From Escherichia coli (GTDB lineage Bacteria; Pseudomonadota; Gammaproteobacteria; Enterobacterales; Enterobacteriaceae), in NCBI RefSeq assembly GCF_003334405.1, contig NZ_QOWM01000016.1: a stretch of 64,000 nucleotides of DNA. One strand, given 5' to 3'. Made by a program: the position numbers and the translations under genes. Below, piece after piece: positions 24,221 to 27,152 of the stretch. The number at the start of each line of letters is the position of its first letter. Within the stretch, counting starts at the first letter, position 1. The notes beneath the pieces were generated by a model. That model worked only from the letters and a program-made list of their open reading frames with translations. It was not told where the DNA came from and made no database searches.

Positions 24221-24250
24221 AAAAAAGGCACCTTGCGGTGCCTTTCTTAT
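24221..24250. terminator. Bidirectional intrinsic terminator between convergent zapB and rraA
   Basis: AAAAAA-AGGCACC-TTGC-GGTGCCT-TTCTT; hairpin flanked by an A-tract on one side and a T-rich run on the other. Confidence 0.7.
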
Positions 24251-24735: not shown

Positions 24736-24827
24736 AGGCTTAACATTCAGTTGCTGCGAGAATTTTCAGTATATCGCGCTATGTGGGCTGTTGGCAAAAT
24801 CATCAATTGTTAATTGATATTTGTCAG

Positions 24828-25754
24828 TTATGCTGCCCACTGGCTTAGGAATATCCCTAAAACAAACAGCAGGTTAGTCAGTAACGCTCCCTTGACAGTA
24901 CGTTCCAGCATTGGTCGCATCGCCACCGGGTCCATTTCCCGCATCACATAACGGGCTTGCTTCACCAGTAATGGTGCCGCCAGCAGGAACAGCCAGCCCC
25001 ACAGGCTATGCAGCGAAAAGAGATTAAACAGCGCCAGACACACCAGCGAGCCCATCAGCAGGCAGGCATGATAACGACGCGCGTTCACTTCACCTAAGCG
25101 CACCACCAGCGTGTTTTTGCCATTTTCGCGGTCGCTATTGATATCACGCAGGTTATTAATATTCAGTACTGCCGTTGCCAGCAGGCCGCATGCGGTCGCC
25201 GGAAGGATCAGTGCCGGAATCAATGTATGAGCCTGTAAATACCAGCTCCCCATGACACTCAACCAGCCAAAGAAAACCAGTACGGAAATATCACCCAGAC
25301 CGATATAACCATAAGGACGATTGCCCACGGTGTAGGTGATAGCGGCAATGATCGACAACCCGCCAAGAATCAGGAAACCGACAAAATCGGCCAGCGTATG
25401 GCATGCCACTGCAACCAGTGCCAGCCCGGAGAGACAGATGAGCACGACGGTAATAATGAGCGCCCGTTTCATCTCTTGCTGGGTAATGACCCCTTTTTGC
25501 ATGCCGCGTAGCGGCCCAATGCGGTCAGGTTTATCGCTGCCTTTTACCGCATCGCCGTAATCATTGGCGAGGTTAGAAAGGATCTGTAATAGCCCGGCGG
25601 TAATTAGTGCCAGCAGGGCGACCAGCGGATCGAAGTGACCTTGCCACCATGCCAGCGCTGTCCCGACGATAATTGCAGCAAAGGCGAGGGGGAGGGTTTT
25701 AGGTCGTAAACTTTCCAGCCACGCCTGAGTTCGGCTAATTTGTTGTTCAGTCAT
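24828..25754 (-). CDS. menA: 1,4-dihydroxy-2-naphthoate octaprenyltransferase
   Basis: Track ORF 24828..25766 trimmed to MTEQQISRTQAWLESLRPKTLPLAFAAIIVGTALAWW (308 aa); UbiA-family membrane prenyltransferase. Confidence 0.9.
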   Translation of the reverse strand: MTEQQISRTQAWLESLRPKTLPLAFAAIIVGTALAWWQGHFDPLVALLALITAGLLQILSNLANDYGDAVKGSDKPDRIGPLRGMQKGVITQQEMKRALIITVVLICLSGLALVAVACHTLADFVGFLILGGLSIIAAITYTVGNRPYGYIGLGDISVLVFFGWLSVMGSWYLQAHTLIPALILPATACGLLATAVLNINNLRDINSDRENGKNTLVVRLGEVNARRYHACLLMGSLVCLALFNLFSLHSLWGWLFLLAAPLLVKQARYVMREMDPVAMRPMLERTVKGALLTNLLFVLGIFLSQWAA

Positions 25755-25764
25755 AATACGCGCC

Positions 25765-25790
25765 AATAAAAATGGGGCCTTTCAGCCCCA
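25765..25790 (-). terminator. Intrinsic terminator downstream of hslU
   Basis: Minus-strand hairpin TGGGGC-TGAAAG-GCCCCA followed by UUUUUA (plus-strand A-tract 25767..25772); lies only about 11 to 35 bp upstream of the menA ATG. Confidence 0.65.
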
Positions 25791-25820
25791 TCAAACAATG
25801 ATGAAAATGATTGAACGCGA

Positions 25821-27152
25821 TTATAGGATAAAACGGCTCAGATCTTCATCTGCCACCAACGCATCCAGATGTTTGCTCACATAATCTGCGTCAATAGTGA
25901 TATTTTGACCGCTTAAATCGCTGGCGTCGTAGGAAATCTCTTCCATTAAACGCTCCAGAACAGTGTGTAAACGACGAGCACCGATGTTTTCGGTAGATTC
26001 GTTCACCTGCCATGCCGCTTCCGCGATGCGTTTAATACCGGAGTCGGTAAACTCGATATTTACGCCTTCAGTCGCCATCAGTGCTTTGTACTGCACGGTG
26101 ATAGAGGCATTCGGCTCGGTCAGAATACGCTCGAAGTCGCTGGTGGTCAGCGCCTGCAGTTCAACGCGGATTGGCAGACGACCTTGCAGTTCCGGGATCA
26201 GGTCAGACGGTTTCGCAATCTGGAACGCGCCAGAAGCGATAAACAGAATGTGGTCAGTTTTGACCATCCCGTGTTTGGTGGAAACGGTGCAACCTTCTAC
26301 CAGCGGCAGCAGGTCACGCTGAACGCCTTCACGAGAAACATCCGGACCGGAAGACTCGCCGCGCTTACAGATTTTGTCGATTTCGTCGATAAACACGATC
26401 CCGTGCTGCTCAACAGCGTCGATAGCGTCTTGCTTCAGCTCTTCCGGGTTCACCAGTTTCGCCGCTTCTTCTTCAATCAGCAGCTTCATGGCGTCTTTGA
26501 TTTTCAGCTTACGCGCTTTTTGCTTCTGGCCGCCCAGGTTCTGGAACATGGACTGCAGCTGGCTGGTCATCTCTTCCATGCCCGGAGGAGCCATAATTTC
26601 AACGCCCATCGGTGCTGCGGCAAGATCGATCTCGATTTCTTTGTCATCAAGCTGGCCTTCACGCAGTTTTTTGCGGAATGCTTGACGAGCAGCGGACGGT
26701 TCCTGCTGCTGTTCGGTCTGTCCCCAGTTGTTTTTAGCAGGTGGGATCAGCACGTCGAGAATACGTTCTTCTGCCAGTTCTTCAGCGCGATAACGGTTTT
26801 TCTCGATAGCCTGGACGCGTACCATTTTCACGGCGGCATCGGTCAGATCGCGAATAATAGAATCCACTTCCTTACCGACGTAGCCCACTTCGGTGAATTT
26901 GGTCGCTTCAACTTTGATGAACGGCGCATTCGCCAGCTTAGCCAGACGACGGGCGATTTCAGTTTTACCGACACCGGTCGGGCCGATCATCAGGATATTT
27001 TTCGGGGTCACTTCATGGCGCAGCTCTTCGTTGAGCTGCATGCGACGCCAGCGGTTACGCAGAGCAATCGCCACAGAACGCTTGGCGTTGTCCTGGCCGA
27101 TGATGTGCTTATCCAGTTCGCTGACGATTTCGCGTGGGGTCATTTCAGACAT
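25821..27152 (-). CDS. hslU: ATP-dependent protease ATPase subunit HslU
   Basis: 443-aa [43 protein letters not shown]...; Walker A GPTGVGKT. Confidence 0.96.

Follow-up and report, generated by a model that had tools for sequence, protein, structure and literature searches.

How is menA expressed when the terminator of the operon upstream ends almost on its start codon? We address this question in a 64,000-nucleotide (nt) stretch of an Escherichia coli contig (NZ_QOWM01000016.1; hereafter the window), in which the minus-strand gene hslU (25821..27152; 443 codons and a TAA stop at 25823..25821) is followed by menA (minus strand, 24828..25754; 308 codons, ATG at 25754..25752). Both coding sequences come from the open reading frame list; the menA start is identical to that of RefSeq b3930, and hslU corresponds to RefSeq b3931 through a coordinate offset, the window being colinear with the E. 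coli MG1655 chromosome and a window coordinate being equal to the MG1655 (NC_000913.3) coordinate minus 4094595. An earlier reading of the window, made from its letters alone (hereafter the sequence-only reading), had placed the hslU terminator directly before menA with neither a clear Shine-Dalgarno (SD) sequence nor room for a promoter in between, and had proposed that menA and rraA depend on read-through from the heat-shock hslVU operon, on a promoter inside hslU, or on unusual initiation. We consider it fairly probable that menA is fed by a small leak through that terminator together with a conserved promoter overlapping the hslU stop codon, the terminator acting as an attenuator within the menA leader.

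Most hslVU Transcripts End 13 nt before menA

The hairpin at 25773..25790 and the U-tract ending about 12 nt before the menA ATG, as the sequence-only reading had described them, are correctly placed according to the sequence and to a consensus terminator scan. On the minus strand, the full hairpin GAUGGGGCU-GAAA-GGCCCCAUU spans 25771..25792 around a UGGGGC/GCCCCA core (25790..25773); the scan selects it with a 9-bp stem containing five G-C pairs and a 4-nt loop, and its isolated fold has an energy of about -14.7 kcal/mol. The U-tract UUUUUAUU (25765..25772, minus strand) is laid out as UUUUU (25772..25768), then A25767, then UU, and 12 nt lie between A25767 and the menA ATG. The hairpin is more than a pattern match given that two independent published 3' end maps converge on MG1655 position 4120362, which is window position 25767. 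Term-seq, which the sequence-only reading had named as a check, locates a minus-strand 3' end at this position (Adams et al. 2021; PMC7815308). The end precedes the menA start by 13 nt, is supported by 28609 reads on average, and has an intrinsic terminator score of 9.51 (at least 3 being counted predictive); the Rho score of 1.17 is nonsignificant, and the entry for a significant Rho termination region is "No." SMRT-Cappable-seq (Yan et al. 2018; PMC6131387) reports 4120362 as the transcription termination site (TTS) of transcripts from the hslVp transcription start site (TSS; 4122348) and matches it to the RegulonDB hslU terminator.

Our comparative set, built with one genome per species, comprises 80 Enterobacteriaceae loci with MenA identities of 81-99%, which reduce to 59 distinct sequences covering the end of hslU, a spacer of 65-70 nt, and the menA start. 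The hairpin is kept in 27 sequence variants across Enterobacteriaceae, every one of which folds (-11.9 to -17.8 kcal/mol). In an alignment of the excised 22-nt hairpins only, which favors structure, two stem pairs covary (GC with CG, and CG with UA or UG) and 99.4% of stem cells are paired compared with 91.6% in shuffles, a level reached by 0 of 500 shuffles. The U-tract and the AUUGG after it are conserved among the 59 sequences. We conclude that the heat-shock operon hslVU ends in a conserved intrinsic, Rho-independent terminator made up of this hairpin and U-tract.

This terminator leaks. In one condition of the SMRT-Cappable-seq study, 143 reads begin at the hslVp TSS, of which 67 stop at the TTS, 9 end within 50 bp, and 2 pass it by at least 50 bp; under the other condition the corresponding numbers are 76, 49, 5, and 3 (PMC6131387). 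The counts of ends and passages (67/2 and 49/3) put read-through at about 3-5% of full-length hslVp reads, an estimate based on two to three long reads per condition. The locus serves as a figure example in that paper, with hslV-hslU, menA-rraA, and rraA detected as units; an hslV-hslU-menA-rraA read-through unit is also reported in the figure legend and in Supplementary Data 3 and 4 (PMC6131387). Most hslVU transcripts are therefore halted at 25767, short of the menA ATG by 13 nt, while a few per cent continue via menA into rraA; terminator and read-through alike have been published before. The same study selects 5'-triphosphate ends and finds menA in two transcriptional contexts in one condition (PMC6131387). 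In 800-nt windows, Term-seq coverage falls from 667 before the terminator to 89 after it without bicyclomycin, and from 681 to 106 with the drug (PMC7815308). Downstream coverage thus amounts to 13% of upstream coverage, compared with the 3-5% read-through of hslVp transcripts, a gap that is compatible with an additional source of menA transcripts and that differences in RNA stability could also yield.

The terminator hairpin loop has itself been a site of insertion. In four genera, an ERIC/IRU-like repeat of about 125-190 nt, which we assign to ERIC by its resemblance to the ERIC consensus, sits exactly in the loop (L040 at about 2850-2975, L051 at about 2795-2985, L053 at about 2850-2975, and L074 at about 2850-2975; two loci of Superficieibacter/Klebsiella type and two of Kluyvera/Enterobacter type). 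The insert contains ...GAATCCCCAGGAGC..ACATAAGTA.GTGACTGGGGTGAG..., and these loci retain the GGGGCUA/UAGCCCC stem and the U-tract, so that the terminator turns into a very long hairpin.

A Candidate menA Promoter over the hslU Stop Codon

The 12-nt gap between terminator and ATG is too short for a sigma70 promoter, in agreement with the sequence-only reading. Upstream of the hairpin, a perfect TATAAT (25820..25825, minus strand) spans the Leu443 codon (CTA), the TAA stop codon, and the T that follows, and we propose it as the -10 box of menA. This hexamer is invariant in 59 of the 59 distinct Enterobacteriaceae sequences, with the leucine codon CTA or TTA throughout and never the common CTG. 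A weak candidate -35 hexamer, ATGAAG (25844..25849, minus strand), lies beyond an 18-nt spacer and is invariant in 52 of 52 loci. According to a simple sigma70 position weight matrix (PWM), ATGAAG-18-TATAAT outscores every other sigma70-like candidate in the 660 nt before menA (score 9.21) and falls within the top 0.02% of window positions. The predicted start of the menA transcript is an A at 25812 (minus strand), 8 nt past the -10 box and preceded by a pyrimidine; in our alignment (A1) this column, A72, is invariant and has variable columns on either side.

The last 10 codons of hslU (434-443; 25824..25853, minus strand), which would hold the -35 hexamer and the spacer at about -41 to -12 of the predicted start, are frozen at synonymous sites. 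Their codon entropy is 0.235 against an hslU mean of 0.78 and is lower only in the first few codons, at the hslV-hslU junction. Departures from the majority synonymous codon number 19/510 (3.7%) in this block and 4867/20181 (24.1%) in the remainder of hslU (Fisher p = 3e-36, a value inflated by the phylogenetic relatedness of the sequences), and the drop in synonymous variation coincides exactly with codons 434-443. The invariant TATAAT, the frozen synonymous sites, and the separate menA-rraA unit together strongly suggest a promoter reaching into hslU. Among the three routes offered by the sequence-only reading, read-through is documented and a promoter extending into hslU is strongly suggested, whereas unusual initiation is unneeded. 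That reading overlooked a consequence of the position of the candidate promoter: since it precedes the terminator, its transcripts must pass the hairpin as well.

We posit the following arrangement on the basis of conservation and of the published menA-rraA unit. A promoter with its -10 box at 25825..25820 and a weak -35 hexamer and spacer in the last 10 hslU codons would start transcription at about 25812, and the resulting 58-nt menA leader would hold the terminator at +21..+46 (hairpin at +21..+42, 3' end at +46). The terminator would then be a constitutive attenuator of promoter-derived transcripts too, releasing a 46-nt RNA in most cases and letting a minority continue. Such a layout would hold MenA low and largely uncoupled from heat-shock induction; menA would be translated from an SD-less, A/U-rich, weakly structured start region, and rraA would additionally be served by a promoter of its own.

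Several points weigh against this proposal. The start near 25812 is a prediction from conservation. The ATGAAG hexamer is weak, matching TTGACA at three of six positions, and a TGn extension is absent. In a genomic SELEX (systematic evolution of ligands by exponential enrichment) screen for constitutive sigma70 promoters, this locus is represented by the rraA promoter and not by a menA promoter. A promoter 20 nt ahead of a terminator of about 95% efficiency would mostly yield the 46-nt RNA, and we found no report of such an RNA. The freezing of the whole spacer exceeds the need of a simple promoter and hints at an extra constraint, for example a regulator site or an RNA helix. The low read counts behind the read-through fraction belong here as well.

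Other promoter positions were considered. A promoter within the terminator itself would combine a -35 hexamer TTGATG (25794..25789) with a -10-like TTTTAT or TTTATT in the U-tract; the resulting menA mRNA would begin only a few nucleotides ahead of the ATG and be nearly leaderless. Such a very short leader would suit an SD-less start, and both hexamers lie in conserved columns; however, the PWM score of TTGATG-17-TTTTAT (5.98) is far under the 9.21 of the TATAAT candidate, the nearly obligatory A is missing from position 2 of the -10 candidates, and the hairpin base and U-tract already explain the conservation. We regard this alternative as very improbable. The runner-up in the scan, CTGACC-17-TATTCT at 26150/26127, was rejected because its -10 box varies freely, and inspection of the frozen block by eye revealed no fitting motif for sigma-E, sigma-28, sigma-32, or sigma-54. 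An FliA (sigma28) site "within hslU," a motif from chromatin immunoprecipitation sequencing that its authors describe as conserved even in genera lacking fliA, occupies 26366..26393 (plus strand); being antisense to hslU and some 540 nt away, it is irrelevant to menA.

The discriminator between TATAAT and the predicted start (25813..25819, minus strand) is GC-rich, reading CGCG in most genera and CCGG or CCCG elsewhere. In this it resembles the discriminators of stringently controlled promoters, which hints at control of menA by growth rate or by guanosine tetraphosphate.

The Constraint Follows the menA Leader

Two Atlantibacter loci (L079 and L080) separate the hslU stop codon from the TATAAT module by an insertion of about 100 nt. 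Here hslU ends in CTG TAA, and the majority codon is abandoned at 6 of the final 10 positions; the rate over the whole gene in that genome is 28%, and other genera at equal overall divergence show just 0-2 departures among these 10 codons. The segment TATAATCGCG stays with the menA leader after the insertion, and TTATAATCGCGC, the leader, the hairpin, and the U-tract are all intact beside menA. This pattern argues that the constraint belongs to a DNA or RNA element tied to the menA leader and not to the decoding of hslU.

The Atlantibacter loci bear directly on an account in which menA has no promoter of its own and is fed by leakage from hslVU and other upstream sources, TATAAT and the frozen codons being kept for stop-codon context or for an RNA element at the hslVU 3' end. 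The documented read-through reads, the downstream coverage of 13%, a menA start that rests on prediction rather than on a TSS coordinate, the weak -35 box, and a 9-bp pairing that joins the frozen block to the conserved leader block (described below) are all consistent with it. In Atlantibacter, however, TATAAT is lost at the stop codon and kept on the menA side, and the end of hslU is relaxed, which argues against a constraint tied to the stop codon. Moreover, a method that selects 5'-triphosphate ends reports the menA-rraA unit apart from the read-through unit (PMC6131387), and the coupling of a respiratory quinone enzyme solely to a heat-shock promoter would seem physiologically odd. We therefore judge supply by read-through alone to be unlikely.

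The Atlantibacter insertions lie at L079:2829-2925 and L080:2830-2925 and carry an inverted repeat of their own, AGAGGTG.C...G.CACCTCT, without a U-tract. TAAT stands at the end of both insertion junctions and may represent a target-site duplication.

More distant relatives were obtained by scanning metagenomes with a degenerate DNA pattern for HslU C-termini whose last leucine codon is not NTA, which yielded 10 loci with menA downstream (MenA identity 48-74%); a MenA protein homologue search had returned only relatives of at least 82% identity and no outgroups. In all 10 outgroup loci a hairpin with a T-run lies 36-66 nt past hslU, and menA begins 50-266 nt beyond it. This terminator-menA spacer has room for a promoter, and by that comparison the Enterobacteriaceae order of promoter, terminator, and abutting start codon looks derived and compacted. 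One of the 10 loci (L116) carries a consensus-like candidate, TTGATC-19-TATAAT, in the spacer.

Within E. coli, the 401 nt around the site are at least 95% identical in 5426 of 5426 complete genomes. A 99-nt core (25752..25850, minus strand) is at least 99% identical in 5409 of these genomes, compared with only 3518 of 5426 for the enclosing 401 nt; the core is thus more uniform than its flanks inside this species too.

A Conserved Block in the menA Leader

Between the predicted start and the hairpin lies a second conserved element, the block CAUUUUCAUCA (25799..25809, minus strand), which belongs at once to the menA leader and to the hslU 3' untranslated region (3'UTR). In the predicted fold of 25812..25725, the first 20 nt of the menA leader, CAUUUUCAUCA included, are unpaired, and the start region is weakly structured. 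Judged from alignment A1, the block is conserved beyond the requirement of a plain promoter; a regulator site, a structure at the mRNA end, or a short-RNA function could possibly account for the excess.

The segment GAUGAAGAU (25850..25842), which encodes Asp-Glu-Asp in hslU, is complementary to AUUUUCAUC (25808..25800) over nine pairs, one of them G-U. Folding of the hslVU 3' end predicts this GAUGAAGAU:AUUUUCAUC helix, whose loop would enclose the stop codon and TATAAT. Across the 59 sequences it is pairable in 98.7% of cells and shows no covariation; the 5' arm is invariant, and variants of the 3' arm mostly break pairs. At the DNA level, the two arms form an inverted repeat flanking the candidate promoter.

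A short-RNA function, or attenuation that responds to a regulator, would extend the promoter-attenuator arrangement rather than replace it. In such a scheme TATAAT, the CAUUUUCAUCA leader, and the terminator would form a dedicated regulatory device conserved in Enterobacteriaceae: a strong promoter firing into a terminator would make an abundant 46-nt RNA that either is itself a regulator, as a small RNA (sRNA) of the 3'UTR type acting in trans, or carries CAUUUUCAUCA as the binding site of a factor that recognizes the leader and the frozen block and tunes read-through into menA. The nearly invariant noncoding block is predicted to be single-stranded and directly precedes a terminator hairpin and U tail, an arrangement typical of sRNAs, and the strong Term-seq signal (mean 28609 reads), the GC-rich CGCG discriminator after the -10 box, and the growth-rate control mediated by the analogous ampC attenuator all speak in the same direction. 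However, the hslVU mRNA ends fully account for the Term-seq signal, the U tail is short (5 U), the papers examined report no such RNA, no alternative antiterminator structure is predicted in the menA leader fold, and a search of Rfam 15 gave no family match, the best hits (E at least 0.62) being unrelated and scoring far below the gathering thresholds. We are accordingly doubtful of a regulatory RNA or a regulated attenuator, and no less doubtful of the dedicated device as a whole; were it real, it would link menaquinone synthesis to growth rate or stress.

Attenuation by a leader peptide was rejected, because the start codon, frame, and stop of the candidate NTG-CAT-TTT-CAT-CAC-TGT-TGA are not conserved and the open reading frame is absent in E. 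coli. The corresponding mini-ORF (M-H-F-H-H-C) is found in many genera (L008-L016, L033, L061, and others), about 15-35 nt past the hslU stop, and runs to the base of the hairpin. A 1-nt difference removes it from E. coli, its frame and stop codon differ in Raoultella and Kosakonia, and it is probably nonfunctional.

The read-through RNA offers a further pairing, on which translational coupling could be built: the hslU stop region (UAUAAUCGCG.UCAAU) would pair with the menA start region (AUUGGCGCG.UAUUAUG), so that only a ribosome terminating at the hslU stop codon would expose the AUG. This helix is present in the E. coli minimum free energy fold around the terminator (-25.1 kcal/mol, z = -3.05). 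Over the alignment, however, 68.2% of its cells are paired against 68.4% in shuffles, its covariation score is under the shuffle mean, and its 3' arm falls in the variable spacer. We rejected it as a conserved element, since it shows no covariation and does no better than shuffles, and consider coupling of this kind highly improbable. The helix (25810..25825 with 25752..25767, minus strand) is specific to E. coli and E. albertii, and it would hide the menA AUG only in transcripts that include the end of hslU.

Translation of menA and Transcription of rraA

The region directly before menA (25755..25764, minus strand) is an A/U-rich spacer without an SD sequence, as seen in alignment A1 and in anti-SD energies, and both its sequence and its length vary among genera; in the 59 sequences, the 8-15 nt upstream of the ATG are free to vary and A/U-rich. 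The sequence-only reading was right that menA has no clear SD sequence: the best anti-SD duplex in the 20 nt before its ATG has an energy of -2.3 kcal/mol, compared with -5.9 for hslU, -7.1 for hslV, and -8.4 for cytR. The neighbors rraA (-0.6 kcal/mol) and ftsN (-0.5 kcal/mol) are likewise poor, so that two of six neighboring genes lack an SD sequence and the weak menA site is not exceptional. Over the 59 orthologous leaders the median is -1.5 kcal/mol, and the AGGA variants of Klebsiella/Raoultella type alone reach -4.3. Given that SD-less starts are common, including those two neighbors, the unusual initiation suggested earlier is not needed, and an unpaired, weakly structured leader, as modeled for menA, is compatible with SD-independent initiation. 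A TTG at 25766 was rejected as an alternative menA start, because it is not conserved and in-frame stops occur in Enterobacter and other genera.

The dependence of rraA on read-through or on a promoter in hslU, which the sequence-only reading had also proposed, does not hold, because rraA has its own promoter, TTGCCA-18-TATACT (24797..24768, minus strand), in the menA-rraA spacer. This promoter is identified both by our consensus scan and by the literature, the hexamers TTGCCA and TATACT being likewise listed in PMC3946193 and PrraA being described in PMC11288022. At the far end of the gene, a strong terminator-like hairpin, AAAGGCACC-TTGC-GGTGCCTTT, lies at 24224..24245 (plus strand), 3' of zapB and a few nucleotides from the convergent rraA stop at 24250, and may be a bidirectional terminator for zapB and rraA.

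Comparison with Known Systems

The closest described system is the frd-ampC overlap of E. coli, in which frdD contains the ampC promoter and the frd terminator doubles as the attenuator of ampC (Grundstrom and Jaurin 1982; Jaurin et al. 1981; both as cited in PMC6045580 and PMC11838884), the attenuator being placed at +17..+37 in PMC11838884. The ampC promoter, like the one proposed for menA, lies where the last gene of the upstream operon ends, an intrinsic terminator of that operon is early in the downstream leader (+17..+37 for ampC and a predicted +21..+46 for menA), and the downstream gene is expressed at a low level; the geometry would be nearly the same if menA transcription starts at about 25812. 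Unlike ampC, however, menA has a promoter and start that are inferred and not mapped, its -10 box coincides with the stop codon itself, and the operon upstream of it is heat-shock inducible; growth-rate control and attenuator-up mutations are known for ampC. With both the start and the attenuated RNA predicted, the membership of menA in the frd-ampC type is provisional, and we regard the reading of a stop-codon promoter with an attenuator as a well-supported but unproven new instance of a known arrangement.

If correct, this reading would explain how a gene for an essential step in making menaquinone stays at low expression directly after an operon that heat induces strongly, and is not carried along with it, and would add a second, deeply conserved frd-ampC-type layout, with a promoter in the upstream gene and the upstream terminator as attenuator. 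The hslU stop codon would be under dual constraint and offer a clean case of selection on synonymous sites and codon choice (rare CTA or TTA and not CTG) by an overlapping promoter, with Atlantibacter as a natural control. Deletion or tagging of the hslU 3' end would likely disturb menA expression.

The sRNAs of the DapZ/MicL type, which derive from 3'UTRs and have their own promoter inside the upstream gene, offer a second comparison. Here as there, a promoter would lie at the end of a coding sequence, a short RNA would run from it to the terminator of the mRNA, and a conserved single-stranded segment would precede the hairpin. They differ in that, for a 46-nt menA RNA, we found no evidence of its existence or of binding to Hfq or ProQ, no known target, and no Rfam match.

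As a terminator, the element resembles the intrinsic terminators with partial read-through described by SMRT-Cappable-seq (PMC6131387) in its GC-rich hairpin, its 3' end in the U-tract, and its extension of a few per cent into downstream genes. It differs from such canonical leaky terminators in nothing essential, the only unusual point being an end 13 nt before the next start codon. Term-seq 3' ends less than 15 nt before the next start codon are rare and not unique, and include tcdA and wecB (-13), purR (-11), rplU (-8), and yifK (-6) (PMC7815308); these ends, all outside the window, are at MG1655 positions 2945855 (minus strand; tcdA), 3970120 (plus; wecB), 1737833 (plus; purR), 3333459 (minus; rplU), and 3980881 (plus; yifK). 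With an intrinsic terminator score of 12.2, the tcdA end is possibly a further instance of the compact layout.

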